This document shows, piece after piece, positions 2,158 through 32,000 of a DNA stretch of 32,000 bases. The notes below the pieces were generated by a model. That model had not been told where the DNA came from. It worked only from the letters and a program-made list of their open reading frames with translations, and made no database searches. The stretch comes from an uncultured Bacilli bacterium (GTDB lineage: Bacteria > Bacillota_I > Bacilli_A > RF39 > UBA660). The position numbers and the translations under genes were made by a program. Positions within the stretch are counted from its first letter, which is position 1, and the number at the start of each line of letters is the position of its first letter. The stretch spans positions 39,362-71,361 of the forward strand of contig CAKOWI010000006.1 in assembly GCA_934122275.1 (NCBI GenBank), given 5' to 3'.

Positions 2158-5201
<3,044 letters not shown>

Positions 5202-8487: not shown

Positions 8488-8874
8488 AATAACCTCCTTT
8501 CCCCCTATGAAACGAGATATTCATATATATTTTATCAAAAAAACTGTGTAAAAACAACGAAAAATATATATTTAAATGTTTTCCACAAGAGTTTTCCACA
8601 GGATAAACTCTTATATTTCAACAAAATTCGACAAAATCCACTTTTCCACAAAAAAAAATTTGTCGAAAAAGTTATATACAATTGAAAGTTTTCCACAGAT
8701 TGTTGATAAATATTGAAAACTAAGCAAATAAACAGAGTTTAAGATTGATACCTGTGGAAAACTATGTGCAAAAGAAAATTAATAAAATTGATTAAATTTT
8801 TAAAACTGTGTATAATTTATGAATACTTTAATCTAAATAATTAGCATAAACATAAGTATAGTAAACAAAAAATG
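8488..8874. promoter_or_regulatory. oriC part 1 / dnaA promoter region with DnaA-box cluster
   Basis: TTTTCCACA (1 mismatch to TTATCCACA) occurs at 8579-8587, 8592-8600, 8642-8650 and 8689-8697, with an inverted TGTGGAAAA at 8753-8761. Two TGTCGAA (Spo0A-box consensus) heptamers lie at 8627-8633 (reverse) and 8661-8667. Confidence 0.75.
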
Positions 8875-8903
8875 TTGACAATTAGTAAAATAAAATTTAT
8901 AAT
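8875..8903 (+). promoter_or_regulatory. Consensus sigma-A type promoter for rpmH
   Basis: TTGACA (8875-8880), a 17-nt spacer, then TATAAT (8898-8903), about 50 nt upstream of the rpmH ATG. Confidence 0.6.
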
Positions 8904-8952
8904 ATTCGTGTTCGAAAAAGACATATTATAATAAAATGCGGAGGTGTTATTG

Positions 8953-9081
8953 ATGAAAAGAACTTTTCAACCTAATAATCATAAGAGAAAAAAGAATCAT
9001 GGTTTTTTTGCTAGGAAGTTAGCCGGAACTGGTATTATGAATTTAAGAAGAGCAAAAGGACGTAAGAAGTTATCTGCATAA
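8953..9081 (+). CDS. rpmH: 50S ribosomal protein L34
   Basis: Below the ORF-track size cut-off. My translation is [42 protein letters not shown] (42 aa). GGAGGTG SD lies upstream, in the conserved position before rnpA. Confidence 0.95.
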
Positions 9082-9083
9082 TT

Positions 9084-9109
9084 CCACTTATAGAAATAAG
9101 TGGTTTTTT
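9084..9109 (+). terminator. Rho-independent terminator/attenuator after rpmH
   Basis: CCACTTAT-AGAA-ATAAGTGG stem-loop followed by TTTTTTG. Confidence 0.6.
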
Positions 9110-13491: not shown

Positions 13492-13560
13492 AATTCTAAT
13501 AACTAATTAACTTTTTTATTGTATTATTGTATAATACCAAAAGAAAAGCAGGTGAGAGTT

Positions 13561-15375
13561 ATGAAATATGATGTTATAGTTGTTGGGGCAGGACATGCTG
13601 GTTGTGAAGCTGCTTTAGCAACATCAAGACTTGGAAAAAGTACACTTCTTATAACAATTAATATTGATAATATAGCAGATATGCCTTGTAATCCTTCTAT
13701 AGGAGGTTCAGCGAAAGGTATTGTTGTAAGAGAAATTGATGCACTAGGTGGAGAAATGGGACGTAATGCAGATAAAACCCTTCTTCAAATAAAGATGCTT
13801 AATCGCTCTAAGGGACCTGCTGTTAGAAGTTTAAGAAGTCAGGCTGATAAAGTAACTTATAAAAAAGAAATGTTAAAAACTCTAAAGAACACTAACAATT
13901 TAAGTATTAAAGAAGCAATAGTATCTGACCTTTTAGTAGAAAATAACAAAATAGTTGGTATAACAACTGAAGACGGAGAAACAATTTATTGTAATTCCTG
14001 TATATTAACTACGGGTACTTATTTAAAAGCAGATATATTAGTAGGAGATAAAAGAACTCCAGAGGGTCCACACGGAGAAAAAAGAGCTAATTTTTTAAGT
14101 GACAATTTAGAAAAATTAGGTTTTAAATTACTTAGGCTAAAAACTGGAACACCACCTCGTATAGAAAGATCTTCAATTGATTTTAGCGTACTTAAAAGAG
14201 AAGATGGAGATGATTGTAAGCTAACTTTTTCATTTGATGATATAGCATACTATGATTATAAAAATCAGGTGCCTTGCTATTTAACTTATACTAATTTAAA
14301 AACTCATAAAATAATTATGGATAACTTAAATAAATCTGCTATGTATGGTGGTTTTTATGAAAAATTAGGAACAGGTCCTAGGTACTGTCCTTCAATAGAA
14401 GATAAGGTAGTTCGTTTTAAAGATAAAGAAAGACATCAATTATTTTTGGAGCCAGAAAGCATGTATTATGATGATATATATTTACAAGGTTTTTCAACTT
14501 CTATGCCACACGATGTTCAAGAAGATATGGTTCACTCTTTAAAGGGATTAGAACATGCTAAAATATTAAGATATGCTTATGCAATAGAATATGATGCAAT
14601 AGATCCACTTCAATTAAAACCATCTTTAGAGACAAAGGTAGTAGAAAACTTATTTACTGCAGGTCAAATAAATGGTACATCAGGGTATGAAGAGGCCGCA
14701 GGTCAAGGTATAGTAGCGGGTATTAATGCTAGTTTAAAATTAGATAATAAAGAACCACTAATTCTTTCTAGAAGTGATGCTTATATTGGTGTATTAATAG
14801 ATGATTTAGTAACAAAAGGAACTATAGAACCATATAGATTACTTACTTCTCGTGCAGAATTTAGACTTTTACTAAGAAGTGATAATGCTGATTTAAGATT
14901 AAGTGAAAAAGCTTATAAAGTAGGATTATTAAGTGAAGAAAGACATAATAAATTATTAAATAAAATAGAAGAAATAAGAGAAATAGAAGAGGATATTAAA
15001 AATATTACTTTTCCTAAAGAAAAATGTAATTTATCAGAATATTTAAAAAGACCAGAAGTTAAAATAAGTGATTATGCTGATAAGTTAAGCAAGAAATATA
15101 GTAAGGAAGCATTAGAACAAGTAGAAATTAATCAAAAATATGAAGGATATATCACTAAAGCTAAAAAAGAAGCAGAAAAAATGATTAGGTTAGGTAAAAA
15201 AAAGATACCAGAAGATATAGATTATGAAAAAGTTGATAATTTAGCAACAGAAGCAAGACAAAAACTTGAAAAAATAAGACCAAGAACCATTGATCAGGCA
15301 ACACGTATTAGTGGTGTTAATCCATCAGATATAGCAATTTTAATGGTTTATTTAAAGAGGTTTTATAATGAATAA
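13561..15375 (+). CDS. mnmG: tRNA uridine 5-carboxymethylaminomethyl modification enzyme MnmG (GidA)
   Basis: MKYDVIVVGAGHAGCEAALA FAD-binding N-terminus, length of about 605 aa, in the conserved mnmE...mnmG-rsmG context. Start at ATG 13561 with an AGGTGAGAG SD. Confidence 0.96.
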   Translation: MKYDVIVVGAGHAGCEAALATSRLGKSTLLITINIDNIADMPCNPSIGGSAKGIVVREIDALGGEMGRNADKTLLQIKMLNRSKGPAVRSLRSQADKVTYKKEMLKTLKNTNNLSIKEAIVSDLLVENNKIVGITTEDGETIYCNSCILTTGTYLKADILVGDKRTPEGPHGEKRANFLSDNLEKLGFKLLRLKTGTPPRIERSSIDFSVLKREDGDDCKLTFSFDDIAYYDYKNQVPCYLTYTNLKTHKIIMDNLNKSAMYGGFYEKLGTGPRYCPSIEDKVVRFKDKERHQLFLEPESMYYDDIYLQGFSTSMPHDVQEDMVHSLKGLEHAKILRYAYAIEYDAIDPLQLKPSLETKVVENLFTAGQINGTSGYEEAAGQGIVAGINASLKLDNKEPLILSRSDAYIGVLIDDLVTKGTIEPYRLLTSRAEFRLLLRSDNADLRLSEKAYKVGLLSEERHNKLLNKIEEIREIEEDIKNITFPKEKCNLSEYLKRPEVKISDYADKLSKKYSKEALEQVEINQKYEGYITKAKKEAEKMIRLGKKKIPEDIDYEKVDNLATEARQKLEKIRPRTIDQATRISGVNPSDIAILMVYLKRFYNE

Positions 15376-17719: not shown

Positions 17720-18643
17720 ATGAAAAAGATACTGCTATTTGTACTATTAATAATTTTAATTCCATTATTACTTACAAATTTTAAGGAAGGTTTAAATACC
17801 ATAAGTAAGTTAAAATATGGGATATATAGTAATAAACAAATAAGAGTAAAAAGGCTTGAAAAAAATAGAATTGATAGCGTTAGTTTAGAAGACTATGTTA
17901 CTGGAGTAGTTGCAGGAGAAATGCCTGCATCTTTTTCTGATGAAGCATTAAAAGCACAAGCTGTTGCATCAAGAACATATGTTTTAAAGCGAATGATTAA
18001 TTCTAATGGAGATTATGATGTGGTTGACTCTGTAAGTAATCAGGTGTATTTAGATGATGATGATATGAAAAAAAAGTGGAATAATAAATATGATGAATAT
18101 TTAAAAAAAATTAAGGATGTTGTATTAAATACAAGAGGAGAAGTTATTTTATATAAGAATAACTTAATAGATGCTATGTTTTTTTCAACTAGTAATGGAT
18201 ATACAGAAAATAGTGTAGATGTATTTTCAGGAGATTTACCCTATTTAAAAAGTGTAGATTCAAAATGGGATGAAAATGAATCACCGTCGTATAAATCTAC
18301 AGTTGTTGTTTCAAAAAAAGATTTTTTATCAAAATTGTCATTTGATGTTAATAGTGATATAAAAATAAATATAGATGAAAAGACAAGTACTGGCAGAGTA
18401 AAATTTATAACTATTAATGATAAAAAATTTAAAGGCACACAAATAAGAAGTACTTTTGGTTTAAAATCAACAAGTTTTAATATAACTATAGATGATAATA
18501 ATGTAGTTTTCAATGTACTTGGATTTGGTCATGGAGTTGGAATGAGTCAGTATGGAGCAAACGGAATGGCAAAAAATGGATATAGTTATAAAGATATTTT
18601 AAAACATTATTATAGTAATTGTGATATAAAAAAAATAAATTAA
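17720..18643 (+). CDS. spoIID: Stage II sporulation protein D (SpoIID/LytB-domain lytic transglycosylase)
   Basis: N-terminal TM segment, LEDYVTGVVAGEMPASFSDEALKAQAVASRTY, FFSTSNGYTENS and GHGVGMSQYGANGMAKNGYSYKDILKHYY are hallmark SpoIID motifs. Confidence 0.85.
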   Translation: MKKILLFVLLIILIPLLLTNFKEGLNTISKLKYGIYSNKQIRVKRLEKNRIDSVSLEDYVTGVVAGEMPASFSDEALKAQAVASRTYVLKRMINSNGDYDVVDSVSNQVYLDDDDMKKKWNNKYDEYLKKIKDVVLNTRGEVILYKNNLIDAMFFSTSNGYTENSVDVFSGDLPYLKSVDSKWDENESPSYKSTVVVSKKDFLSKLSFDVNSDIKINIDEKTSTGRVKFITINDKKFKGTQIRSTFGLKSTSFNITIDDNNVVFNVLGFGHGVGMSQYGANGMAKNGYSYKDILKHYYSNCDIKKIN

Positions 18644-19334: not shown

Positions 19335-20312
19335 ATGAGAAATAAAGATATAGGCATTGACTTAGGAACAGCTAATATACTTATTTATGTAAGAGGTGAA
19401 GGAATCGTACTATGCGAACCTTCAGTTGTTGCTGTTGATCAAGAAACTGGAAAAGTTTTAGCTATTGGTGAAAAAGCTCATGAAATGCTAGGCAGAACGC
19501 CCGGAACAGTTATCGCGGTAAGGCCTTTAAAAGATGGGGTTATCGCGGATTTTGATAAAACAGAAGTTATGCTTGATTATTTCATAAAAAAAATAAAAGG
19601 GAAAACCATTTTTAGAAGGCCTAGAATACTTATATGTTGTCCTTCAAATATAACTCAGGTTGAGAAAAATGCAATAAGAGAAGTTGCAGAAAGAACTGGT
19701 GCAAAAAAGGTATATGTAGAAGAAGAACCTAAAGTTGCAGCAGTTGGTGCAGGACTTGATATAGCAAAACCAAGTGGTAGTATGGTAATAGATATTGGTG
19801 GAGGTACCACAGATATAGCGGTATTATCATTAGATGGAATAGTATATAGTGAATCAATTAAAATAGCTGGAAATGTATTTGATTCTGATATTATAAAATA
19901 CATTAAAAATAAATATAAGTTGCTAATTGGAGAAGTAACTGCAGAACAGGTAAAAATAAAAATAGGAACTGTTCTTAATGATGCAAAGCAAAAGACAATG
20001 AAAGTAAGAGGTAGAGACTTATTAAGTGGTCTACCAAAAACGATAACAGTTAGTTCAGAAGAGGTAAAAGACGCCATAAAAGATAGTGTATCTCTTATAA
20101 TCCATACTACTAAATTAGTATTAGAAAAAATAGAACCTGAAATATCAGCAGATATAATTGATAAGGGAATTGTCTTAACAGGTGGTGGTGCATTGTTAGA
20201 AGGGTTAGATAAATTAATTGAATCAGAAATAAAAGTCCCAGTTAAAATTGCAAACAGTCCACTTACATGTGTGGCAGAAGGAACTGGTATAATATTAGAT
20301 AATTTAATTTAA
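19335..20312 (+). CDS. mbl: Rod-shape-determining actin homolog, MreB/Mbl family
   Basis: DIGIDLGTANILIYVRGEGIVLCEPSVVAV, VIDIGGGTTDIAVLSL and GIVLTGGGALLEGL are actin-fold phosphate and adenosine motifs. The paralog call (mbl) rests only on Bacillus-like synteny after spoIID. Confidence 0.9.
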   Translation: MRNKDIGIDLGTANILIYVRGEGIVLCEPSVVAVDQETGKVLAIGEKAHEMLGRTPGTVIAVRPLKDGVIADFDKTEVMLDYFIKKIKGKTIFRRPRILICCPSNITQVEKNAIREVAERTGAKKVYVEEEPKVAAVGAGLDIAKPSGSMVIDIGGGTTDIAVLSLDGIVYSESIKIAGNVFDSDIIKYIKNKYKLLIGEVTAEQVKIKIGTVLNDAKQKTMKVRGRDLLSGLPKTITVSSEEVKDAIKDSVSLIIHTTKLVLEKIEPEISADIIDKGIVLTGGGALLEGLDKLIESEIKVPVKIANSPLTCVAEGTGIILDNLI

Positions 20313-20371: not shown

Positions 20372-21082
20372 ATGATAAATTTTATAGTGTGTGATGACAA
20401 TAGCTATGTAAGAACGCTAGTAGAATCAATTATATCAAAAGTTGCAATGCCATATGATTTTGACTACAAAGTATATTCCTTTGAAAAGTATGATTCAAAA
20501 ATGAAAGCCTTAATTCATTCTTCATCTGATATAAAGGTTTATATTTTGGACTTAGAATTACCAAATAAGAGTGGCATTGATATTGCTAATGAAATAAGAA
20601 AAGTAGATTGGGATAGTGTGATTATTATATCAACGTCTCATAACGAATTAGAGCTAAAAATTCTAAAGCAGCGCCTTCTTATTTTTGACTTTATATCTAA
20701 ATTTGATGATTATGAAAAAAGGTTAAGTGACACCTTAAATTTGATAATTAACAAAGTAGGTACAAAAAAATATTTAAGTTTTAGATCTAATAAGGAACTA
20801 CATCATCTAAATTCTGATAACATCTTATATATCTATAGAAATAACGAATCCGGAAAAACTACCATAGTCACAAATGAGGAAAAATATGAAGTAAGAGAAA
20901 GCTTATCATACTTGGTGAATAAACTAGATAAAAGATTTGTTCAATCACACAGAGCATGTTACGTTAATAGAGATAAGGTTAAGTCTATTGATTTCAAAAA
21001 TAATATAATATATTTTAATAATGGAATGAAATTAGATTACTTATCCAGAAATTATAAGAAAGGGTTAAGAGTATTATTATGA
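20372..21082 (+). CDS. LytTR-family response regulator (AgrA-like)
   Basis: Receiver domain (MINFIVCDDN..., phospho-acceptor context VYILDLELPNKSG) plus a C-terminal LytTR domain (FVQSHRACYVNRDKVKSIDF). AGGTGG SD lies upstream. The stop overlaps the kinase start (ATGA). Confidence 0.85.
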   Translation: MINFIVCDDNSYVRTLVESIISKVAMPYDFDYKVYSFEKYDSKMKALIHSSSDIKVYILDLELPNKSGIDIANEIRKVDWDSVIIISTSHNELELKILKQRLLIFDFISKFDDYEKRLSDTLNLIINKVGTKKYLSFRSNKELHHLNSDNILYIYRNNESGKTTIVTNEEKYEVRESLSYLVNKLDKRFVQSHRACYVNRDKVKSIDFKNNIIYFNNGMKLDYLSRNYKKGLRVLL

Positions 21083-22377
21083 GTGTAGAAAAGATTATTG
21101 TTGCTATTATAGCAGCCTTGTTTCAAAGTATTGCAACTACTTTTTTAGTATGTAAGCAAATTAGTTGTTCTGATAAAAAGAAGATATCGAAGTTTTTGTT
21201 GTTTGCATTTTTGTATTTTATTGCTGTATATCTATTTATACCTAATGCCGCAAGATTTATAATGTTTATTATTTCAATTTCTTTAATAACGTTTTTTGTA
21301 ATGAAAATTAAGGATTTGAACTCTGTTATATATGCATTTAATGCTGAGATGATATTAGCAGTATCCGAAATATTTATATCTCTCGTTTTAGTATTAGTTG
21401 GAATAAATTCAAAAGAAATAGTTACTAATAGTGGTTATAATCTAATAGCAAATATATTAATCTCTATTTTAGCAGTTCTTATTATGAGTTTAGAATATAT
21501 AAGAAAATTATTAGCTAAAGAAGTCGAAATAATAAATAAAAAAAGAGTAATAAAGATATATATATTAATAATATTTTTGGCAGTATATTTTTTAGTATTA
21601 AAAAACGGATTTGAATTTTTAGCGAAGTCTAATTATTACATTAATATTTTATTTATATTATTTTCAGTACTAGTATTAACAATGATAATGAGAAATGAAC
21701 TTAAATATAATCAATTAGAAGAAGAAAATAAAAATATGCTTAATTATGTTACCAAATATGAAAAAATAATAACTGAAAAAGGTAAAGCAAATCATGAATT
21801 TAAAAATCAGTTAATGGTAATAAGAGGATATGCACAGATGAATTCACCTAAGCTAATTGAATATATTGATTCGCTTACGGTAGACGCAAATAAAACTTAT
21901 AGTAGTTATTTAATAAGTCAGTTAAATAAATTTCCAGATGGTGGATTAAAAGGATTGTTATACTATAAATTATCAATAATGGAAGACTGCAACATATCAT
22001 ATGATATAAACGTAGAAAATGGTGTTAAAACAAAATTAAAAAGTTTGGGTGTCAAAGAGCATAAAAATCTTACTAAAATTTTAGGTGTTTTGTTAGATAA
22101 TGCAATAGATGCAAGTAAAAAGTGTAAAAATAAAAAGATAATAATAGAAGTTAGTATGGAGAAGAATAAGATTATATTTAATATTCAAAACACATATAAG
22201 GGTGATATTAATCTTAATATGATAGGTACTGGTTATTCTGCTAAAGGAAAAGGTCATGGTTTTGGATTAAGATTAGTAAAAGATATAATAGAAAAAGAAG
22301 AAATATTTGAATTAGAAAATAAAGTTGAAGATGGATATTATGTATCTGAACTTAAAATAAAAAAGAAAAAAAGTTAA
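21079..22377 (+). CDS. AgrC-like (HPK10) membrane sensor histidine kinase
   Basis: About 6 N-terminal TM helices, H-box ANHEFKNQLMVIRGY, N-box LLDNAIDAS and G-box GTGYSAKGKGHGFGLRLV. Confidence 0.85.
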   Translation: MSVEKIIVAIIAALFQSIATTFLVCKQISCSDKKKISKFLLFAFLYFIAVYLFIPNAARFIMFIISISLITFFVMKIKDLNSVIYAFNAEMILAVSEIFISLVLVLVGINSKEIVTNSGYNLIANILISILAVLIMSLEYIRKLLAKEVEIINKKRVIKIYILIIFLAVYFLVLKNGFEFLAKSNYYINILFILFSVLVLTMIMRNELKYNQLEEENKNMLNYVTKYEKIITEKGKANHEFKNQLMVIRGYAQMNSPKLIEYIDSLTVDANKTYSSYLISQLNKFPDGGLKGLLYYKLSIMEDCNISYDINVENGVKTKLKSLGVKEHKNLTKILGVLLDNAIDASKKCKNKKIIIEVSMEKNKIIFNIQNTYKGDINLNMIGTGYSAKGKGHGFGLRLVKDIIEKEEIFELENKVEDGYYVSELKIKKKKS

Positions 22378-22727: not shown

Positions 22728-23333
22728 TTAAGTGTTTAAACCATATTTTTTATAGTTATTATAAGGCATATTAAATATTTTATATGTTAATGGATTAATT
22801 AGTATGCACTCAATAATAAGTCCAATTATTAAACAATTTTTGATTAAGTTATTATCAATTACTAGTGATAATATAAAATATAGAGTGACCACTAAAACAG
22901 ATAATAATTTAAATATGTTTCTTTTTTTCTTTTTGATAAGAGGTCTTTTAACTGTATCAGCAGGTGCATAAATTATAACTATTATTAATACAACTAAGTA
23001 TAGTAGATATAATAAATAATCATTTATCGATACATATTTGCATAAGTATGTTCCTAGTATAAATATGCTACTTGAAAATACTAAGCATATCCAGCTTTTA
23101 TTCGCATGCATACCAAATGCAAATAATCTTATAAAATTATATGTCAGTAATAGAAGTAACATCTCCTTAATTATTCCTAATATGATAGCTATAGTAAATA
23201 TAACTATGCACTTAGTAATAGTTAGATATATACCTTCAATTCCATACATTATTTCATCTAATTTATCATTTGAATAATCTGGATATTGTTTGCTTATCAA
23301 AGCTCTCATTTTTTTTAGAAAACGCTTTTTCAT
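22728..23333 (-). CDS. agrB: AgrB accessory gene regulator (AgrD-processing membrane peptidase)
   Basis: 201-aa multi-TM protein with IRLFAFGMHANKSWIC (catalytic His...Cys spacing as in S. aureus AgrB RRHAHGAHAPSSFWC) and IYAPADTVKRPL (YAPAATKKKP). Confidence 0.88.
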   Translation of the reverse strand: MKKRFLKKMRALISKQYPDYSNDKLDEIMYGIEGIYLTITKCIVIFTIAIILGIIKEMLLLLLTYNFIRLFAFGMHANKSWICLVFSSSIFILGTYLCKYVSINDYLLYLLYLVVLIIVIIYAPADTVKRPLIKKKKRNIFKLLSVLVVTLYFILSLVIDNNLIKNCLIIGLIIECILINPLTYKIFNMPYNNYKKYGLNT

Positions 23334-23910: not shown

Positions 23911-24441
23911 ATGAGATATATCATAAGAGGAGAAAAAGTAGAAATAACTGATTCTATTAAAACTTATATAAAGGAGAAAATTAATAAATTAGATAAGTAT
24001 TTTGAAGAACCAAACGAAATTAATGCAATGGTGGTAATAAAGGTTCGTGGTAAAGAACAAAAAATTGAGATAACTATACCAACAGTTCATTATACGTTAA
24101 GAAGTGAAGAATCTCATGATGATTTATATGCTGCAATTGATCTTACAGTGGATAAATTAGAAAGACAAATTAGAAAAAATAAAACTAAAATCAATTCTAA
24201 AATAAAGAAAGATTTAATTAAAAACTTTGAATTTGATTTAGCTGATGATTTTGAAGATGATAATATGAAGATATTAAAGAGAAAAAAAGTTGATGCTAAA
24301 CCAATGGATGAGGAAGAAGCTATCTTACAAATGAATATGCTAGGTCATTCGTTCTTTGTATTTAAGGATGTAGATACAGGTGGTATAAGTGTAGTATATG
24401 AAAGAAAAGATGGTAATTACGGAATTATTGAAACAAAATAG
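23911..24441 (+). CDS. hpf: Ribosome hibernation promoting factor (long HPF)
   Basis: MRYIIRGEKVEITDSIKTYIKEKINKLDKYF N-terminal domain plus the C-terminal dimerisation domain (KPMDEEEAILQMNMLGHSFFVFKDVDTGGISVVYERKDGNYGIIE). Located upstream of secA as in Bacillus. Confidence 0.93.
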   Translation: MRYIIRGEKVEITDSIKTYIKEKINKLDKYFEEPNEINAMVVIKVRGKEQKIEITIPTVHYTLRSEESHDDLYAAIDLTVDKLERQIRKNKTKINSKIKKDLIKNFEFDLADDFEDDNMKILKRKKVDAKPMDEEEAILQMNMLGHSFFVFKDVDTGGISVVYERKDGNYGIIETK

Positions 24442-24525: not shown

Positions 24526-27018
24526 GTGAAATTATTTAAAAGATTATTTGATCATGAATATAAAGAATTAGAAAAGTTTAAAAAAATAGCAGATGAAATA
24601 TTTGCTTTAGATGAAAAATATGCAAAGATGAGTGATAAACAATTACAAGCATGCACTAAAAAGTTAAAGAAAAGATTATCAGATGGAGAAACAGTTGATG
24701 ACATAGTTACTGATGCTTTCGCTCTTGTTAGAGAAGCTTCATACCGTGTTATAGGCGAAAAACCATTTTATGTACAAGTGTTAGGTGCACTTGCAATTCA
24801 TTTTGGTAATATTGCTGAAATGAAAACTGGTGAAGGTAAAACTTTAACTTGTGTTATGCCTGCTTATTTAAATGCATTAACTGAAAAGGGTGTTCATGTT
24901 GTTACTGTAAATGAGTATTTAGCAACACGTGATGCTAAATGGATGGGACAGATATATGAATTTCTTGGTTTAACGGTTGCTATAAATTTAAGAGAGATGT
25001 CTTCTAAAGAGAAAAAAGAAGCTTACAATGCTGATATTTTATACTCTACTAATAATGAATTAGGTTTTGACTATTTAAGAGATAATATGGTAGTTGATGC
25101 AGAAGATAGAGTTCAAAGACCACTTAATTTTGCAATAATAGATGAGGTAGACTCTGTATTAATAGATGAGGCTAGAACACCACTTATTATATCTGGTGGA
25201 GTTATGAAATCAGCTAATCTTTATAAGGATTCTGATAGATATGTTAAGACATTAAAAGAAAATGAAGATTATACAATAGATGCTAAAACAAAGGACATAA
25301 CTTTAACTGATCAAGGAACTGCAAAGGCAGAAAAGTACTTTAGATTAGATAATTTATATGATATTGAACATTCTGCATTGGTACACCACATAAATCAAGC
25401 ACTTAAAGCAAATTATACAATGCATAATGATGTTGATTATGTTGTACAAGATGGAAAAGTTGTAATTGTAGACCAATTTACAGGAAGACTTATGCCTGGT
25501 AGAGCATTTTCCGATGGTCTTCATCAAGCTATAGAAGCTAAGGAAAATGTTGAGGTTCAGGAAGAAACTAAAACCCTTGCAACTATTACGTTCCAAAATT
25601 ACTTTAGAATGTATGAAAAATTATCTGGTATGACTGGTACTGCTAAAACCGAGGAGGAAGAGTTTAGAAATATTTATAATATGTTTGTTATACAAATACC
25701 AACTAATTTGCCAGTAATAAGACAAGATGCAACAGATTTAATTTATTCATCAAAAGAAGAAAAATATAAAGCAATAATTGCCGAAATAAAAAAGAGACAC
25801 GAAACAGGTCAACCTATATTAGTAGGTACAATTGCCATTGAAACCAACGAATTACTTAGTGAATTATTAAAGAAGGCACATATAAAACATGAAGTATTAA
25901 ATGCTAAAAACCATGCTAGAGAAGCTGAAATAATTGCTAAAGCAGGAGAAAAGGGTGCAGTTACTATTGCAACAAATATGGCTGGACGTGGTACTGATAT
26001 TAAGCTTGGAGAAGGTGTTAAAGAATTAGGTGGTTTATGTGTAATAGGAACAGAAAGACATGAATCAAGACGTATAGATAACCAGTTAAGAGGTCGTTCA
26101 GGTCGTCAAGGAGATCCTGGATACAGTCAATTTTTTGTTTCATTTGAAGATGAATTGATGGTAAGATTTGGTACAGATAGATTTAAAACAATACTTGAAA
26201 TGGCAGGTTTAGATAGTCAAAGAAATATGCGTAGTAAAACTATTACAAGATCAGTTGAAACCGCACAAAAGAGGGTTGAGGGAAATAACTTTGATGCTCG
26301 TAAACATTTATTACAATATGATGATGTAATGGGAAAACACCGTGAAATTATGTATGCAAAAAGAAATACGATATTAGATGCTGACGATGTTCATAGTTAC
26401 GTAATAGATACAATAAAAGAACATATTGAAATAGTTGTAAGAAGACATATTAATGAACATGGTGTTATTATTGAAGCTGATTGTAATGAAATAGTAGAAT
26501 ATGTTAATGAAAATTTACTTAATAAATCTAATTTAAAATTATCAGAAATACTAAATAAAGAAGTAAATGAAATAATTGAAGTCATAACCGAAAAAGTTTT
26601 AAATGAGTATGAGAATAAAATAAATGAATTACCTGATGAAATAAGAAGAGACTTTGAAAAAGCTATAAGCTTACAAGTTATTGATAATTACTGGATGGAA
26701 CATATTAATACTATGGATCATTTAAGAGAAGGTGTTTCTCTAAGAGGGTATGCTAATGAGGATCCACTTCAAGCTTATATAAGAGAAGGATTTGAATTAT
26801 TTGATAAAATGCTTGATAATATTTGTAAAGATACTACTTTATATCTATTAAAAGCTGAAATAAGACAAAATTTACAAGCTAAACAAGTAAAAGGAAATAC
26901 AAATGAAGCTAGAGATTTCTCTTCAAGAAAGCCTATTAAAAAGGGAAAAAAGGTAGGACGTAATGATCCGTGTCCTTGCGGAAGTGGTAAGAAGTACAAA
27001 CAGTGCTGTGGCAAATAG
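24526..27018 (+). CDS. secA: Preprotein translocase ATPase SecA
   Basis: 830 aa with Walker A MKTGEGKTL, DEVDSVLIDEARTPLIISG, TNMAGRGTDIKLG and a C-terminal zinc motif CPCGSGKKYKQCCG. GTG start with an AAGGAGATGA SD. Confidence 0.97.
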   Translation: MKLFKRLFDHEYKELEKFKKIADEIFALDEKYAKMSDKQLQACTKKLKKRLSDGETVDDIVTDAFALVREASYRVIGEKPFYVQVLGALAIHFGNIAEMKTGEGKTLTCVMPAYLNALTEKGVHVVTVNEYLATRDAKWMGQIYEFLGLTVAINLREMSSKEKKEAYNADILYSTNNELGFDYLRDNMVVDAEDRVQRPLNFAIIDEVDSVLIDEARTPLIISGGVMKSANLYKDSDRYVKTLKENEDYTIDAKTKDITLTDQGTAKAEKYFRLDNLYDIEHSALVHHINQALKANYTMHNDVDYVVQDGKVVIVDQFTGRLMPGRAFSDGLHQAIEAKENVEVQEETKTLATITFQNYFRMYEKLSGMTGTAKTEEEEFRNIYNMFVIQIPTNLPVIRQDATDLIYSSKEEKYKAIIAEIKKRHETGQPILVGTIAIETNELLSELLKKAHIKHEVLNAKNHAREAEIIAKAGEKGAVTIATNMAGRGTDIKLGEGVKELGGLCVIGTERHESRRIDNQLRGRSGRQGDPGYSQFFVSFEDELMVRFGTDRFKTILEMAGLDSQRNMRSKTITRSVETAQKRVEGNNFDARKHLLQYDDVMGKHREIMYAKRNTILDADDVHSYVIDTIKEHIEIVVRRHINEHGVIIEADCNEIVEYVNENLLNKSNLKLSEILNKEVNEIIEVITEKVLNEYENKINELPDEIRRDFEKAISLQVIDNYWMEHINTMDHLREGVSLRGYANEDPLQAYIREGFELFDKMLDNICKDTTLYLLKAEIRQNLQAKQVKGNTNEARDFSSRKPIKKGKKVGRNDPCPCGSGKKYKQCCGK

Positions 27019-27078
27019 CCCATAAAATAAGGGTTTGCGAGATTTGAAAGGACTAAAAAAAGGTTGAAAAAACCTCAA

Positions 27079-27178
27079 ATGTTTGTAAATTGTTTGTAAA
27101 AATTACAAAATGTTTGTAAAATAGTTCTCAAACCCTTATAAAATAATGAAAAAAATTTACAAACATTTTTACAAACAA
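27079..27178. repeat. Array of five 11-bp (A/T)TGTTTGTAAA motifs (3 direct, 2 inverted) at the island junction
   Basis: ATGTTTGTAAA at 27079-27089, TTGTTTGTAAA at 27090-27100 and ATGTTTGTAAA at 27110-27120. Inverted TTTACAAACAT at 27156-27166 and TTTACAAACAA at 27168-27178. The first three copies are bracketed by the inverted repeat ATAAGGGTTTG(C)GAG (27027-27041) / CTCAAACCCTTAT (27127-27139). Confidence 0.6.
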
Positions 27179-27241
27179 AATAAATACTAGCAATTTGCTG
27201 GTATTTTTTCATTTGCTAAGCAATTAGTGGAGAAAAAAATT

Positions 27242-27544
27242 ATGGGAAATGTTTATGTTCAAAAAAGGGGAAAGGTATATCAATATCAATTTGCGATAGC
27301 ATCTATTGATGGTAAAAGAAAATATAAAAACAAGTCAGGATTTAGGACTAAGTCAGAAGCTATTGAGGCAGGAGTAAAGGCATACAATGAATATATAAAT
27401 GTGGGACACTGTATAGAACCAAGCAAAATGTCTTATAGTGATTATTTAGATTATTGGATGAAAGAGCATTGTGAAATAAATTTAAAGTATCACACCATAG
27501 AAGCATACAAAAATATAATAAAAAATCATATTGTTAATGATATT
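27242..27544 (+). pseudogene. 5' stub (~100 codons) of a tyrosine recombinase/phage-type integrase
   Basis: MGNVYVQKRGKVYQYQFAIASIDGKRKYKNKSGFRTKSEAIEAGVKAYNEY (arm-binding AP2-like N-domain) plus SYSDYLDYWMKEHCEINLKYHTIEAYKNIIKNHI (start of the SAM-like core-binding domain). Recognisable sequence stops at about 27532 and the ORF drifts to a stop at 27613. No catalytic domain is present anywhere downstream. Confidence 0.7.
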
Positions 27545-27547
27545 ATA

Positions 27548-28511
27548 AGAATGTACAAAAAATGTAATATAAAAATGCACAATTTTGTACATTCTTTTGT
27601 TATACTTTTATAGACTTAGGAGGTATGACACAAAGGAAATAAATAAATTAAAACAGGAGTTATTAATAATGAAAACAAATAATATTAAACCAAATTATTC
27701 TGAACTAGCAAGATTGCATAGTTGTGATAGAAGGATCGTAAAAAAATAAGATAATGGATATGAGGGCAAACCAACTACTCGTGATAAAGAATCTAAATTA
27801 GATAAATATAAAGAAGAAATAAAATCAAAATTAGAAAAAATAAAAGAAAATATAGATCAATATATTGATTTAATAAATAATAAAAAGAAAGATGTTGTAG
27901 ATGCATTGTATGAATTAACAAATTAAGAAATAGAATTAAGGAATGAAAAAGCAATTTATGGATGTGTAAGAACAGCTGGTTTTTCATTTTTAAAAACTTT
28001 TGAAGATTTTGATTTTTCATTTTAACAATCAATTAATAATGAACAAATAATTGATTTTAACAATTTGAGATTTATAGAAAATAAAGAAAATATAATTTTT
28101 GTTGGAAGCCCAGGAGTTGGGAAAACACATTTAGCAACAACAATAGGAATAACTGCCACTCAAAATAGGAATTTTACATATTTTATAAATTGTAATGATT
28201 TAATAGCTAATTTAAAAAAAGCAAATTTTGAAAAAAGATTTATTAATCAAATTAATCACTATGCGAAATATAAAGTATTAGTAATCGATGAAGTCGGTTT
28301 CTTACCAGTTGATCCTGAGGGAGCGAAAATTTTATTTCAATTAATAAATAAAAGATATGAAAAACATTCGACAATAATAACAACTAATAAACCTTTTGGT
28401 AAGTGGCACGAAATATTTAATGATGTAACATTAGCAAATGCCATACTGGATAGATTATTACATCATTTTCATATTATTAATATAAACGGAAATTCATATC
28501 GTTTAAAAGAA
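27548..28511 (+). mobile_element. IS21-family remnant (istA' N-terminal stub fused to a damaged istB)
   Basis: 13-bp inverted repeat AGAATGTACAAAA / TTTTGTACATTCT (27548-27560 / 27583-27595) sits at the point where integrase homology ends. istA-like HTH region MKTNNIKPNYSELARLHSCDRRIVKK*DNGYEGKPTTRDKESKLDKYKEEIKSKLE starts at 27669. IstB-like ...ALYELTN*EIELRNEKAIYGCVRTAGFSFLKTFEDFDFSF*QSINNEQIIDFNNLRFIENKENIIFVGSPGVGKTHLA...VLVIDEVGFLP...TTNKPF..W...ILDRLLHH...NGNSYRLKE follows. In-frame TAA codons lie at 27747, 27924 and 28023. Element boundaries are uncertain. Confidence 0.65.
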
Positions 28512-28817
28512 ATAGATAATTTTTGCAAAGAAAATTTAAAAGTAGAACTTAATGCAAAAACTCAAATAGGTAAAGTAAAAAATGGTATAGACTTTTTAGG
28601 TTTTAGATTAATACTAACCGAAACAGGTAAAGTTGTAAAAAAGTTAAGAGGTTCTTCTAAAATAAGATTTAAAAGGTATTTAAAAAATCTAAAAAAATTA
28701 AAAAAAAAAGGAGTAATAGACACAGAATATGTAAATATAAGAAGAAATAGTTTTGCCTCCCGTATAAAGAGAACAGATGAAAGTAGGGCTTTTTTGAACA
28801 AAATAATGTCAGAATAA
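28512..28817 (+). pseudogene. 3' fragment (thumb region) of a reverse transcriptase (DGR / group-II-intron-like type)
   Basis: IDNFCKENLKVELNAKTQIGKVKNGIDFLGFRLILTETGKVVKKLRGSSKIRFKRYLKNLKKLKKKGVIDTEYV matches the RT domain-7/thumb pattern (..L.LN.KTQI....G.DFLG......TGKV..KLR..SK.R.K). It is fused in frame to the IstB remnant (track ORF 28065-28817 is this chimera). The palm/YxDD domains are absent. Confidence 0.6.
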
Positions 28818-28898: not shown

Positions 28899-30791
28899 AT
28901 GAACTTTGGTTTAAATAATAAGTTTACGTTACTTTCAGAAGAAGAAATTTTTGGAAGTCAAGAAATAGATATTATTAGTAAAATGGGTGGTAGGTGTGCA
29001 ATATCTGATTTTGCAATCCTTTTAGGTGCTTATGTATCTAATGATTATTTTATAGAAGATGATAGTTCATTAAAAGGCAGAACAACTTGGTGGTGGACTA
29101 GATCTTCTGGTGGCGATGGTAATGTTCGTAATGTCCTCAGGGATGGTAGTCGTTCCTGGGATAAGGCATGTAAGCGTTCCGGTGCCGTTCGCCCAGCTTT
29201 ACCGTTTTCTAGCATCTCTGACATCTCCCCGAACGTAGTGAGGGGAAGAAGTGGATTTTTGGAAGTTGAATATGGAGAATATCCACAATATGCAGTTGAC
29301 ACAAGATTAGCTAGAACACTTGATAGCGAATATTCAGCAGGTAGATTAAAAAAAACAGGTAAGACATATACAACAGATTCAAGAGTATGGAATGCTTCTT
29401 CAGAGAGTTTTAAAGCGAGAGAACATCATGAATATGAATATAATGGTAAGAAATATGTCAAGGTGAAATATGTTGATACCGACTCTTGCAAATTATCAAA
29501 TGGCGAAAGTTATCAAATTGGTAATGAAGTTTGGGTTGAAGTTGCACCAATAAAATGGCTAGTTGATGAAAAATCAAGATTAATGTTAAGTAAGACTTGT
29601 CTTGCTTCTGGAATAAGATTTTGTAATAATGGACAATATAGAGGCGATTTTGAGAGAAGCGAGATGTATATGTTCTTAAATACATATTTTGCAAAAGACA
29701 TAACACCGACTGTTGTTCATGAAATGACACCAGAAGAAAAAGCACAATATGAAGAAGAACAAAAACAAGCTGAAAGAAGAAGAAACCCTTATGGTTTGAA
29801 ATTTGGACAAGTTAGTGAAGAAGAAATTATAAAAGGAGCAATAGAAAGTGGAGTTGCAGTATTCTTGCATGGACCTTCATCAGAAGGTAAATCTGCAAGA
29901 GTTAAGCAAATTGATCCAACTTGTGAAATTATATATCTTCGTAATGCTACACCAGAAAGTTTAAATGGTAAAAGTGTTTATAATCAAGCAACAGGCGAAA
30001 TGATGGATGTTAAGCCAAGTTGGTTGAAAAAATTAGAAGAAAAATGTGCAAATGAGCCAGATAGATTTCATATTGTGTTTTTAGATGAAATAACTAATGC
30101 ATTACCTAGTATTCAAGGTATAGCATTTAACATTGTATTAGATAGAGAAGTTAATGGTATTTGGAAATTACCAGAAAATGCAAGAATTGTTGCAGCAGGA
30201 AATGATATGAAAGATTCATTAGCTGCAAATCAATTAGCAGAGCCATTATTCAATAGATTTGCTCATGTATATATTAAAACAACTACTGAAAGTTGGTTAA
30301 AATGGGCAAGTGAACATAATATACATCCAGCAATTTATTCTTATATTGCTTATAAGAATGGTGAAACATTAAGAAGTAAGTATGATGGTGAGAAACCTAA
30401 TGCTGATCCTAGAAAATGGGAAATGGCTTCTAAAATGCTTTATGCAACAGGAAGTCCAGAAATGTTAAGGGCATTAGTAGGTGAAGATATAACAAGAGAA
30501 TTTGTTGAGTTTTGTAATCAACAAGTAATAACATTAGATGATGTATTAAATGGAAATTATACCGATAGAGATATACAGGCATTAAATACTGCTGAAAGAT
30601 ATGCAACAGCTATGGGATTAACACAGGTAGATGATGATAATTTAGAAAAAGATAGAGGATTCGTTACAGGATTAGGAGCAGAATTTGGAGCAATTTTTGA
30701 TGCTTTATGGACACATGGCGATGAAAGAAAGTTAGAAAGACTTGCAGAAGCAAAACTTGCTGAAATACCTGGAGGAGGTATAAGAAGATAA
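28899..30791 (+). CDS. Fusion protein: N-terminal WWxRS...VRPAL lectin-like (DUF6273/DUF1566-like) domain plus C-terminal MoxR/AAA_5-type AAA+ ATPase
   Basis: N-terminal FTLLSEEEIFG...AISDFAILLGAY...TTWWWTRSSG...GAVRPALPF, then PIKWLVDEKSRLMLSKTCL...SEMYMFLNTYFAKDI. C-terminal Walker A GPSSEGKS, Walker B HIVFLDEITNA, sensor-1 RIVAAGND and PLFNRFAHVY. GTGAGGT SD. No signal peptide or TM segment. Confidence 0.8.
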   Translation: MNFGLNNKFTLLSEEEIFGSQEIDIISKMGGRCAISDFAILLGAYVSNDYFIEDDSSLKGRTTWWWTRSSGGDGNVRNVLRDGSRSWDKACKRSGAVRPALPFSSISDISPNVVRGRSGFLEVEYGEYPQYAVDTRLARTLDSEYSAGRLKKTGKTYTTDSRVWNASSESFKAREHHEYEYNGKKYVKVKYVDTDSCKLSNGESYQIGNEVWVEVAPIKWLVDEKSRLMLSKTCLASGIRFCNNGQYRGDFERSEMYMFLNTYFAKDITPTVVHEMTPEEKAQYEEEQKQAERRRNPYGLKFGQVSEEEIIKGAIESGVAVFLHGPSSEGKSARVKQIDPTCEIIYLRNATPESLNGKSVYNQATGEMMDVKPSWLKKLEEKCANEPDRFHIVFLDEITNALPSIQGIAFNIVLDREVNGIWKLPENARIVAAGNDMKDSLAANQLAEPLFNRFAHVYIKTTTESWLKWASEHNIHPAIYSYIAYKNGETLRSKYDGEKPNADPRKWEMASKMLYATGSPEMLRALVGEDITREFVEFCNQQVITLDDVLNGNYTDRDIQALNTAERYATAMGLTQVDDDNLEKDRGFVTGLGAEFGAIFDALWTHGDERKLERLAEAKLAEIPGGGIRR

Positions 30792-31183
30792 TGGAAAACA
30801 AGAAAGAAATATTATTATCATATATTAAAGCAAATGTTGCACCAATATTAGTTGATTTTATATCTGGTAAAGATATAAATGGTGCAGTTGTCTTACCTGC
30901 CAATGTTGATGTTAAAGAGTTAAATGGTCATTATGATGGAGCAGATTTTATGCCACCAAAATGGCTTAATGAAATATTAAGTACAAATGCAAGTAAAATT
31001 TTAGTAATTGATAAAATTGATGCAATAGCAAAAGAAGAACAATTAAAATTTTGTGAATTATTAGAACATAGGAAAATATCTACATTTGAATTACCAAAAA
31101 GCTGTGTGATAATTGTAACAGCGAACGAAATAAATAAAGATAAGATTAACGAAGAAATATTCTCATTAGTTGCACGAATTTGA
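30791..31183 (+). CDS. Truncated, catalytically degenerate AAA+ module (paralog of the ATPase core of the preceding gene)
   Basis: The start overlaps the upstream stop (TAATG). FMPPKWLNEIL...KILVIDKIDAIAKEEQLKFCELLEHRKISTFELPKSCVIIVTANE...INEEIFSLVARI aligns by eye with ORF1 MDVKPSWLKKL...HIVFLDEITNALPSIQGIAFNIVLDREVNGIWKLPENARIVAAGND...LAEPLFNRFAHV. There is no P-loop, and Walker B is DK rather than DE. Confidence 0.7.
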   Translation: MENKKEILLSYIKANVAPILVDFISGKDINGAVVLPANVDVKELNGHYDGADFMPPKWLNEILSTNASKILVIDKIDAIAKEEQLKFCELLEHRKISTFELPKSCVIIVTANEINKDKINEEIFSLVARI

Positions 31184-31193
31184 GGTATAAATT

Positions 31194-32000
31194 ATGAAAT
31201 ATGATATTGAAGCGTTAAAAAGGAAAATGCTTGTTAAATATCCATTTTTTGGGAGTGTAGTAGCAAGCGTTGGTTATAAGGAAAATAAAGATATATCAAC
31301 TGCTGGTACAGATGGAGAAATAATTTACTACAATCCTAAATATTTAGAAAGTTTAAGTGTTGAAGAGCAAACTTTTATATTTGCTCATGAAGTATGTCAT
31401 ATTGCATTTAATCATATCTTAAGAAGTGAAGGTAAAGATCCAGAGTTATGGAATATTGCTACTGATGGTGTTATTAATCAATTTCTTAAAAGAGATGGAT
31501 TAAAAATGGCAAAAGGTGGAGTTGATATTGCTGAAGCTATAAACTATGATGCTGAACAATTATATGAAAAACTATTACAAGAAAAGCAGCAAAGACAACA
31601 GCGACAACAAAATGGACAGGGTAATGGTCAAAATCAACAAAGTAATCAACAACAAAATCAGCAACAAAGTGGTAGCAGTGGGCAAAGTGGAAATAGTCAA
31701 CAAAAACAATCGCAACAACAGAGTGGTAATTCTCAAAGCCAAGACCAACAACAAAATCAAGAAAATCAGCAACAAAATGGTGGCGGTAGACAAAGTGGAG
31801 ATAACCAACAGCAATCACAATCTCAACAACAAAATAGTTCTGGTGGTGGAAGTTCACAAGAACAAGATAAACAATCACAAGAACAAAGTGGTGGTGGATT
31901 TAGCGAGGATTCACAAGAAGAAGAAAAACAACAAGATGTTGGACATGATACTCACAGTATGTGGGAACAAGCAGTAAAAAAACATAAAGAGGAACAAGAA
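31194..32000 (+). CDS. HExxH putative metallopeptidase (DUF2201_N-like) with Q/N/S/G-rich linker; 3' end beyond the window (a VWA-like domain is expected)
   Basis: Not in the ORF track (open to the window edge). My translation is MKYDIEALKRKMLVKYPFFGSVVASVGYKENKDISTAGTDGEIIYYNPKYLESLSVEEQTFIFAHEVCHIAFNHILRSEGKDPELWNIATDGVINQFLKRDGL...QQRQQRQQNGQGNGQNQQSNQQQ...HDTHSMWEQAVKKHKEEQE, 269 codons without a stop. GAGGT SD 7 nt upstream. Confidence 0.8.
   Translation, partial: MKYDIEALKRKMLVKYPFFGSVVASVGYKENKDISTAGTDGEIIYYNPKYLESLSVEEQTFIFAHEVCHIAFNHILRSEGKDPELWNIATDGVINQFLKRDGLKMAKGGVDIAEAINYDAEQLYEKLLQEKQQRQQRQQNGQGNGQNQQSNQQQNQQQSGSSGQSGNSQQKQSQQQSGNSQSQDQQQNQENQQQNGGGRQSGDNQQQSQSQQQNSSGGGSSQEQDKQSQEQSGGGFSEDSQEEEKQQDVGHDTHSMWEQAVKKHKEEQE
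31578..31934 (+). repeat. CAA/CAG/GGT-rich low-complexity coding tract (Q/N/S/G linker)
   Basis: About 120 codons dominated by caa, cag, aat, agt and ggt. This tract generates the spurious alternative-frame ORFs 31546-31977(+), 31537-31878(-) and 31575-31814(-). Confidence 0.8.

Follow-up and report, generated by a model that had tools for sequence, protein, structure and literature searches.

In the established Bordetella model of a diversity-generating retroelement (DGR), a reverse transcriptase (RT) acting together with the accessory protein Avd copies the RNA of a template repeat (TR) with misincorporation at adenines, and the cDNA replaces the variable region (VR) of a target gene. Among the DGR targets described, tentaclins of phages carry the VR in the 5' portion of their gene (Int J Mol Sci 2023, PMC10743442), and the DUF6273 domain is reported to resemble the C-type lectin fold (PMC10743442). 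The MoxR-vWA 'ternary' conflict systems are likewise DGR-diversified, and a sensor-transducer logic has been proposed for them (Kaur et al. 2020, PMC7159879; Dore et al. 2024, PMC10907252); C-lectin-AAA ATPase DGR targets of candidate phyla radiation (CPR) bacteria are mentioned in Dore et al. 2024 (PMC10907252). Here, a 32,000-nt stretch of DNA from an uncultured Bacilli bacterium (GenBank assembly GCA_934122275.1, contig CAKOWI010000006.1, positions 39,362 to 71,361; hereafter, the window) is analysed with a focus on a single gene whose 5' part stands out by its composition. The element to which this gene belongs is a DGR by every family-level criterion and is of a kind already known, the window holding a decayed copy of it. 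Judged from comparison with related strains and species, positions 29103-29196 are very probably a DGR variable region that has been orphaned in cis. The gene and its parts are as follows.

28899..30791, plus strand: DGR target gene, intact, encoding 630 aa, with an N-terminal variable domain (residues 1-266) and an AAA+ ATPase domain (residues ~309-576)
29103..29196, plus strand: predicted VR, 94 nt, covering residues 69-99 and the first base of codon 100; placed by the match to the TR of sister contig L100, by sharp ends and by strain divergence
29136..29180, plus strand: hypervariable core of the VR, 11 of 15 codons hypervariable family-wide, with a near-invariant Gly (29145) and Arg (29175) between them
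29181..29196, plus strand: 3' end of the VR, GC-rich (GGTGCCGTTCGCCCAG), which likely anchors homing as the counterpart of the GC-rich element in the initiation of mutagenic homing (IMH) sequence; identical in the window VR, the L100 TR and the L012 TR
29226..29246, plus strand: hairpin with a 5-bp stem (TCCCC/GGGGA) and an 11-nt loop (GAACGTAGTGA), 29 nt 3' of the VR, identified by covariation

The assignment of the VR is based mainly on sister strains. An exact-pattern scan of metagenome contigs with the downstream flank of the VR returned four contigs of the same lineage. The cassette is intact in L100, with avd at 1623-2204, the TR at 2264-2357 and the RT at 2579-3589. The L100 TR (94 nt) is identical to window positions 29103-29196 at 85 of 94 sites, with homology that begins and stops sharply at 29103 and at 29196, the latter being the first base of the Ala codon in VRPAL. 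Six of the nine mismatches are located at TR adenines, comprising the codon changes GAT>GGT, AAT>CTC, AAG>AGG and AAC>TCC, and the VR of L100 differs from its own TR at eight sites, all eight of them adenines. Comparison of the window, L098 and L100 with one another reveals that the VR differs by 12.8-14.9% and the flanks (1,305 nt) by 1.8-2.2% (Fisher p 4e-8 to 7e-6). The individual values are 12.8% versus 2.2% for window and L100 (p 7e-6) and 13.8% versus 1.8% (1.76%) for window and L098 (p 2e-7). Relative to these two strains, the window differs at 7-9 of the 21 TR adenine sites (33-43%), compared to 3-6 of the 73 other sites (4-8%). Given the match to the L100 TR and a strain divergence confined to the VR, the window VR is best understood as a product of this DGR. 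The first-pass annotation of the window, made from the letters alone, had proposed this for the patch as a possibility, and the adenine-focused mismatches together with the contrast between VR and flanks bear the proposal out.

The wider family provides the machinery that the window lacks. A homologue search with residues 1-266 gave 334 proteins, mostly from metagenome-assembled genomes (MAGs) of gut 'Bacilli bacterium', and a full scan of 1.84 billion cluster representatives put the family size at 1,197 clusters at E <= 1e-10. An adenine-tolerant diagonal score was used to look for TRs at 79 species-level genome loci. The order avd-like gene, TR, DGR-type RT, target is found in at least 27 related species, the complete cassette reading avd, TR, spacer (~220 nt), RT, target, 130-aa gene and DUF2201 gene. 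TRs of ~94-100 nt were found at more than 25 loci, ~200-300 nt upstream of the RT. The TR/VR mismatches are almost only at TR adenines, with zero non-adenine mismatches at many loci, as exemplified by the following pairs (matches/adenine mismatches/other mismatches).

L069 88/12/0; L074 90/10/0; L090 83/10/0
L044 69/12/0; L081 66/14/0; L012 94/7/2

The RT of the relatives (337-338 aa in L001, L100 and L012) bears GIPLGNLSSQWYALIYL, the GIPLGNLSSQ motif and the YMDD box, and in 27 of 67 species-level loci a full RT ends ~80-100 nt before the target. Its best match among solved structures is the reverse transcriptase 8ub7 (E 3e-38), far ahead of group II intron and retron RTs, and the two share an IGxLxSQ motif in the alignment; we take 8ub7 to be the Bordetella DGR bRT. 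Directly upstream of the TR, at least 27 loci have an avd-like open reading frame (ORF) of 193-196 aa that resembles PHROG 3206, 'Avd protein of DGR' (E 3e-14); its C-terminal 110 residues align with positions 5-106 of 107 in the Pfam profile bAvd, at E 3e-4 and below the gathering score. A template-less or self-templated system had been considered for the family and was dropped after TRs were found upstream of the RT in relatives and in L100.

Multiplicity of targets is frequent in the family. Two or three tandem or nearby paralogous targets per locus are present in L002, L005, L014, L024, L031, L035, L036, L038, L039, L041, L043, L045, L050, L052, L064, L075, L082 and L088. Their VR regions are 100% identical in L036, L039, L043 and L075, and in L035, L041, L045 and L082 the paralogous targets were each matched to one TR. 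Some paralogues are AT-rich at the VR position and have no hairpin, and these may be long-frozen or never-diversified copies. The domain itself can be multiplied within one protein: P0121, P0128, P0130, P0143, P0194 and P0209 have it as two or three tandem 266-residue units or place it in the middle of a protein of 800-1000 aa. Public assemblies often break in or next to the target gene. Six contigs with an identical 130-aa protein (L092-L097) start in the ATPase part and many genome contigs end soon after the target's N-terminal domain; paralogous copies or strain heterogeneity may be the reason for these breaks.

Alignment of 100 target genes resolves the VR at the level of codons. The segment from WW.. 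to RPALPF is hypervariable even among close relatives and both of its flanks are conserved. Amino-acid entropy reaches 2.97-3.67 bits at the codons starting at 29136, 29139, 29142, 29148, 29154, 29157, 29160, 29163, 29169, 29172 and 29178. At the hypervariable codons, nucleotide positions 1 and 2 reach up to 1.4-1.95 bits and position 3 is low at several, consistent with the AAY pattern (Y, pyrimidine) of DGR templates. The residues R98 and P99 are invariant. The WWWTRS motif, by contrast, had been called invariant and is not so, for W, Y and F vary in the alignment. The patch had been described as extending from between WWWTRS and VRPAL to just after VRPAL, and only the first part of it is VR; the stretch past VRPAL consists of a 29-nt spacer (29197-29225, 41% GC) and the hairpin (29226-29246).

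The 3' boundary of the VR has features of a homing site. After CCCAG, where TR/VR homology stops, the VR runs on as CTTTACCG and the TR as ATTCACTTTTGAAG, so that the TR-side junction reads ...GTTCGCCCAG followed by ATTCACTTTTGAAG. By analogy to known DGRs, the GGTGCCGTTCGCCCAG end is likely the homing anchor. The GC stem noted at 29226-29230/29242-29246 in the first-pass annotation is present, and covariation within the family supports it. Of the cells in 57 distinct family sequences, 90.9% are paired, as compared with 77.0% in shuffles (0 of 500 shuffles reach the observed value) and 36-65% in slid controls; these figures apply to the GC-rich subfamilies, 18 divergent AT-rich paralogues without the motif having been omitted. 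Changes on both sides occur in four of the five pairs, with pair 13-27 found as AU 27, CG 16 and UA 12 and pair 10-30 as CG 22 and UA 16. The stem is kept despite differing encoded residues between subfamilies (SPNGVRG versus PTNGESG). On the TR side, the 3' flank (e.g., L100 2358-2385) reads GATTCACTTTTGAAGAAATTC or GATTTGCTTTTGAAGAGATT and is shared in conserved form by distant loci, perhaps as a portion of the spacer RNA required for priming.

In its likeness to the prototype DGR of Bordetella phage BPP-1 (mtd-avd-TR-brt), the family shows the same RT clade (8ub7 match, IGxLxSQ), an Avd-like four-helix accessory protein, adenine-only TR/VR mismatches and AAY codons in the relatives, and a GC-rich VR 3' end with a hairpin after it. 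It is distinct from BPP-1 in the gene order (avd-TR-RT-target, the target being downstream of the RT), in the placement of the VR in the 5' part of the target (residues 69-99 of 630), in TR/VR homology that stops abruptly at CCCAG without an extended IMH/IMH* stretch, and in the form and distance of the hairpin (5-bp stem, 11-nt loop, 29 nt from the VR). It is furthermore a cellular element, and in the window nothing of it survives but the VR, the hairpin and a stub of the RT.

The composition that had drawn attention to the patch was reproduced exactly on recount. Positions 29101-29220 comprise A19 C27 G35 T39, hence 62/120 G+C (51.7%) and 16% A, and 35 of the 44 codons in 29103-29234 end in T or C, compared to 46% in the whole gene. 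The GC content is 52.6% over 29095-29246 and 27.4% over the window. The 120-nt stretch with the highest GC of all 32 kb begins at 29135 (0.55; mean 0.274, sd 0.057), ~5 sd above the mean; other 120-nt stretches above 0.44 are found only in gyrB (3675-3816) and mreB (19405-19550). Measured against the remainder of the same gene, the probabilities are 2e-8 for A <= 19, 7e-6 for GC >= 62 and 5e-6 for at least 35 of 44 NNY codons. Adenine depletion had been ascribed to DGR mutagenesis, and this holds in part. The adenines decrease from 21 in the L100 TR to 15 in the window VR, so mutagenesis removed only six. Since the L100 TR itself already has 50% GC, 22% A and NNY codons at 25 of 31 positions, the striking composition, as far as these sequences tell, is mostly designed into the template and the mutagenesis accounts for only the six lost adenines.

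Two explanations of the patch that involve no retroelement activity deserve consideration in this light. Import of a mosaic piece from a higher-GC donor gene would agree with the sharp jump of the GC content from 27% to 52%, confined as it is to ~150 nt. However, the same GC- and NNY-rich patch recurs at the same position in many family members from many species, the TR next to the gene carries the same sequence in relatives, the patch flanks are continuous with the gene, variation is concentrated at TR adenines, and no donor is required; import was rejected because of the family-wide patch, the TR copy and the adenine-focused variation, and we regard it as highly improbable. The other explanation invokes amino-acid constraint from a conserved Gly/Arg/Ser/Asp/Pro-rich motif, combined with diversifying point mutation on a binding loop. 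The segment does code for many G, R, S and D, and non-adenine VR sites also differ more than the flanks (4-8% versus ~2%). It is opposed by the third codon positions, whose GC content of 0.42-0.45 in the patch (with 0.80 pyrimidine) compares to ~0.10 in the remaining gene and shows the bias to reach synonymous positions too, by the untranslated TR copy upstream of the RT that bears the same sequence, and by adenine-only TR/VR mismatches at more than 10 loci. A composition driven purely by amino acids is contradicted by the TR/VR pairs and was rejected as barely credible.

The assignment as DGR variable region has to be weighed against a number of observations that speak against it. The window contains no TR/VR pair, and the DGR membership of its copy rests on homology to the relatives. 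Three of the nine mismatches between the window and the L100 TR are at non-adenine sites; the same three recur in the VR or TR of other relatives and are thus ascribed to TR polymorphism between lineages. Of the 13 VR differences between window and L098, six are non-adenine, beyond what pure adenine mutagenesis from one TR would yield, and to account for the excess, polymorphism of the TR or selected point mutations have to be invoked. The folding energy of the hairpin is no better than that of shuffles (DNA fold z = 0.75, window sequence). Finally, Foldseek with the 266-residue model of the variable domain gave no C-type lectin match, and no match at E <= 0.001, in PDB or BFVD.

Decay of the element is evident from the region between secA and the target gene, which holds the following remnants.

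27227..27613, plus strand: N-terminal fragment of a tyrosine integrase (Pfam Arm-DNA-bind_4, Phage_int_SAM_3)
27585..28502, plus strand: IS21-family remnant, an N-terminal helix-turn-helix piece of IstA (internal stop, deletion) followed by IstB profile positions 87-234
28503..28817, plus strand: C-terminal remnant of the DGR RT, residues 233-337 and the stop, without fingers, palm and YMDD box; recognised by DNA homology to the L100 RT

The dead RT fragment reported upstream of the target is thus a real remnant, although it starts at 28503 and not at 28512. Homology to the L100 RT sets in abruptly at TTAAAAGAAATAG (28503), the YMDD box just upstream of the breakpoint being gone. The remnant agrees with the L100 RT at 103 of 105 residues and is also picked up by tblastn when the L001 RT is the query. 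The ORF at 28065-28817 (Pfam IstB_IS21, E 4e-58) is a chimera in which an IstB fragment is fused in frame to the RT tail. The IS21 remnant takes up the position that in relatives belongs to avd, the TR and two-thirds of the RT (its 5' part), and we conclude that an IS21 insertion and later deletions removed avd, TR and RT residues 1-232. No TR was found in the window with a standard repeat finder, with blastn (word size 7) or with two ungapped diagonal scans that tolerate adenine mismatches, in agreement with the earlier failure to find one; repeat-finder, blastn and diagonal scans were equally negative for a TR in L001, L003, L007 and L009. The window also lacks avd (by tblastn) and any full RT. 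The suggestion that the active RT and TR may lie beyond position 32000 did not hold for the cassette of this copy. The TR of the relatives is upstream of the RT, so the window TR must once have lain where the IS21 debris is now; and in a strain (L092) 98-99.9% identical to the window, the 10 kb downstream contain no TR, avd or full RT; the stretch holds what remains of the DUF2201 gene along with an integrase, a methyltransferase and RhuM.

The sequence evidence makes the loss of the cassette recent: the RT stub has 98% identity to an intact RT, and the full TR-like sequence is still present in the VR. Within this one lineage a decay series can be laid out: L100 is complete, L001 has the RT without TR and avd, the window and L098 have the RT stub, and L101 and L091 have nothing. 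A 3' RT stub beside an intact target is present in six other species (L026, L042, L043, L067, L078, L084), so the RT gene has been truncated repeatedly from the 5' side.

Further marks of rearrangement surround the remnants. The integrase fragment (27227-27613) is 90% identical to one in L092 (7715-7977), ~7 kb downstream of the operon, and these fragments may be repeats bounding an integrated island; a tRNA scan of the window for an integration site found none. Just downstream of secA, an imperfect inverted repeat (27077-27168; 40 nt, 73% complementary, 12-nt spacer, rich in TTTGTAAA/TTTACAAA) might represent a terminator, or alternatively a site of attachment or binding.

Whether loss of the machinery in cis has also ended diversification is a separate question. 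We lean towards a window VR that is no longer being rewritten. The first-pass annotation had thought of a frozen VR, which is not established, and the observation that speaks against it comes from L098. Across the IS21 debris this strain runs colinear with the window, and it shares the RT breakpoint, hence the same RT truncation, yet its VR is 13.8% off that of the window, compared to 1.8% for the RT remnant and the gene flanks. The window VR might therefore be rewritten in trans from another place in the genome, by a second DGR having a compatible TR and 3' anchor, an account that we consider possible but rather doubtful. Besides the divergence of window and L098, which is confined to the VR relative to flanks (1.76%) that include the unconstrained RT remnant, several findings agree with service in trans. 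In one MAG, the VR on contig L085 pairs with the TR on a different contig, L082, and within the TR/VR block all mismatches are at adenines; L082 itself serves two targets 4 kb apart; 32 of the 67 species-level loci have a target without any RT upstream; and in the window the VR, the GC-rich anchor and the hairpin are all intact. Against it, no second RT, avd or TR was found in the 32-kb window, the 10 kb downstream in the near-identical strain or the 10-kb L098 locus. About half of the VR differences between window and L098 are non-adenine, which fits recombination with DGR-active strains (e.g., L100), or different ancestral TRs, equally well. The divergence between window and L098 is, moreover, mosaic (0-3 to 7-21 differences per 100 nt), and recombination in the region with DGR-active strains such as L100 is the explanation we draw from it. 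A VR no longer being rewritten thus stays our preferred reading.

The diversified protein combines a variable domain with an ATPase and is encoded together with two partners.

28899..29696, plus strand: variable domain, one compact fold in the AlphaFold2 model, with DUF6273 profile similarity
30791..31183, plus strand: conserved 130-aa partner protein, syntenic in all related operons; weak AAA match (E 0.0027)
31194..32000, plus strand: 5' part of the DUF2201 partner gene, a putative metallopeptidase (DUF2201_N, HExxH; Pfam DUF2201_N E 8e-39) with a Q/N/S-rich linker

Residues 1-266 gave no Pfam or NCBIfam match, and the exact 630-aa protein was not on record in a look-up. The AlphaFold2 model of residues 1-266 has a predicted local distance difference test score (pLDDT) of 92.5 and a predicted template modelling score (pTM) of 0.91. 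Residues 1-119 modelled alone fold poorly (pLDDT 59.6), indicating that residues 1-266 are one folding unit, in which the hypervariable residues 80-94 are placed in a loop-strand-loop segment. In the homologues P0012, P0098 and P0116, residues 2-98 match positions 82-169 of the DUF6273 profile above the gathering score, and residues 239-288 of the L012 protein match positions 20-68 weakly (E 0.064). With the N-terminal part resembling the C-terminal half of DUF6273 and the far end resembling the N-terminal half, profile similarity suggests a circularly permuted DUF6273-like domain. The best BFVD entries include two DUF6273 proteins (E 0.14-0.41), and no Mtd, TvpA or FGE is among the Foldseek matches (PDB, BFVD). 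The lectin-like domain of the first-pass annotation accordingly has no counterpart in the Foldseek results; what speaks for it is the similarity to the DUF6273 hidden Markov model together with the reported likeness of DUF6273 to the lectin fold (PMC10743442). A VR in an N-terminal domain had been flagged as unusual. The VR does lie in the gene's 5' part, but there is precedent in phage tentaclins (PMC10743442). With the gut-phage DGR targets of DUF6273 type, tentaclins among them (PMC10743442; Faecalibacterium prophages, PMC11792537), the family has in common a 5' VR in a DUF6273-type domain, its location in the C-terminal DUF6273 half, and the gut microbiome habitat. Whereas in tentaclins the variable domain is followed by one or more Ig/Fn3 domains and a conserved C-terminal Ig domain for anchoring, the family shows no Ig/Fn3 matches and lacks a domain for virion anchoring; its variable domain is joined to an AAA+ ATPase instead, and the DUF6273 similarity of the window target is partial and apparently circularly permuted.

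Among 50,697 phage records, none matches the variable domain and only the ATPase half is matched (27-31% identity), and family relatives number one in IMG/VR compared to 374 in bacterial genomes. The element is cellular, not phage-borne.

The ATPase and the partner proteins relate the target to another type of system. Residues 309-576 match the PHROG ATPase phrog_1297 (E 3e-47), with weak AAA_5/AAA matches in Pfam, and full-length orthologues of the DUF2201 partner (534-539 aa) combine DUF2201_N with a VWA-like DUF2201 domain that lies beyond the window here. The linker of this partner (31590-31900) is Q/N/S/G-rich and contains an imperfect 108-nt direct repeat (31650-31702/31758-31810, 83%); its length varies by strain, with a gap of ~108 nt in L098. 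The 130-aa protein has no informative match, and neither it nor the target, the DUF2201 partner or Avd was matched by any PADLOC model. What the family shares with the MoxR-vWA systems is the coupling of a binding domain diversified by a DGR to an AAA+ ATPase and a partner of VWA type, in a protein that is likely cytoplasmic. In contrast to these systems, the variable domain here sits N-terminally on the ATPase, where theirs is at the C-terminus of the vWA protein; as partner there is a DUF2201_N metallopeptidase with VWA-like DUF2201, of the phage-type family PHROG 1314; the AAA+ domain, weakly matched by AAA_5/AAA, has its strong match to a phage ATPase family as compared with the MoxR class; and the hosts are low-GC gut Bacilli versus multicellular cyanobacteria and purple sulfur bacteria. 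No VMAP, the third component of the MoxR-vWA systems, was identified among the operon proteins scanned, in which no search aimed at VMAP was made.

The window as a whole represents the region of the chromosomal origin. It includes gyrB (2158-4086, minus strand), dnaA (7135-8487, minus strand), mnmG (13519-15375), spoIID-like (17720-18643), mreB (19335-20312), HPF (23911-24441) and secA (24526-27018), and an agr-like module with a histidine kinase (21079-22377) and AgrB (22728-23333, minus strand). Gene orientation flips at ~8500-9100, and this switch is probably oriC.

Taken on the Bordetella model, the intact cassette would work as follows. The TR transcript would be reverse-transcribed by the RT with Avd, with misincorporation opposite template adenines, and the cDNA would replace the VR, homing being anchored by the GC-rich GGTGCCGTTCGCCCAG 3' end and helped by the hairpin 29 nt downstream. 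The L100 TR, with 21 adenines in 14 codons, gives access to ~1e11 protein variants; three of its variable codons are AAG, able to mutate to stop. The diversified residues would sit in a strand-and-loop segment of a DUF6273-like binding domain fused to the AAA+ ATPase, and the target would work with the 130-aa protein and the metallopeptidase/VWA-like partner. No signal peptide is apparent in the target protein and the fused ATPase is of intracellular type, for which reasons the target is likely cytoplasmic. From its likeness to the DGR-diversified MoxR-vWA systems (PMC7159879, PMC10907252) and to the AAA-fused targets of CPR bacteria, we infer a sensor-transducer function of the target module. 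It is only a tentative proposal that the permuted DUF6273-like-AAA+ ATPase, the 130-aa protein and the metallopeptidase/VWA-like protein constitute a new cytoplasmic, DGR-diversified sensor system of low-GC gut Bacilli.

Lastly, the locus has importance for the recognition of DGRs and for their biology in this family. Raw composition alone, GC-rich, A-poor and NNY-biased in an AT-rich genome, can suffice to recognise the variable region of a DGR, even after both template and enzyme are lost. Standard DGR finders require an RT and a TR/VR pair, so orphan VRs of this type would escape them. The decay series within one lineage could show how long a VR keeps its signature and whether diversification in trans maintains it. 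If the proposed sensor system is true, an intracellular module of anticipatory recognition or defence is possible for these gut Bacilli, and its orphan copies may stay in service via DGRs acting in trans.

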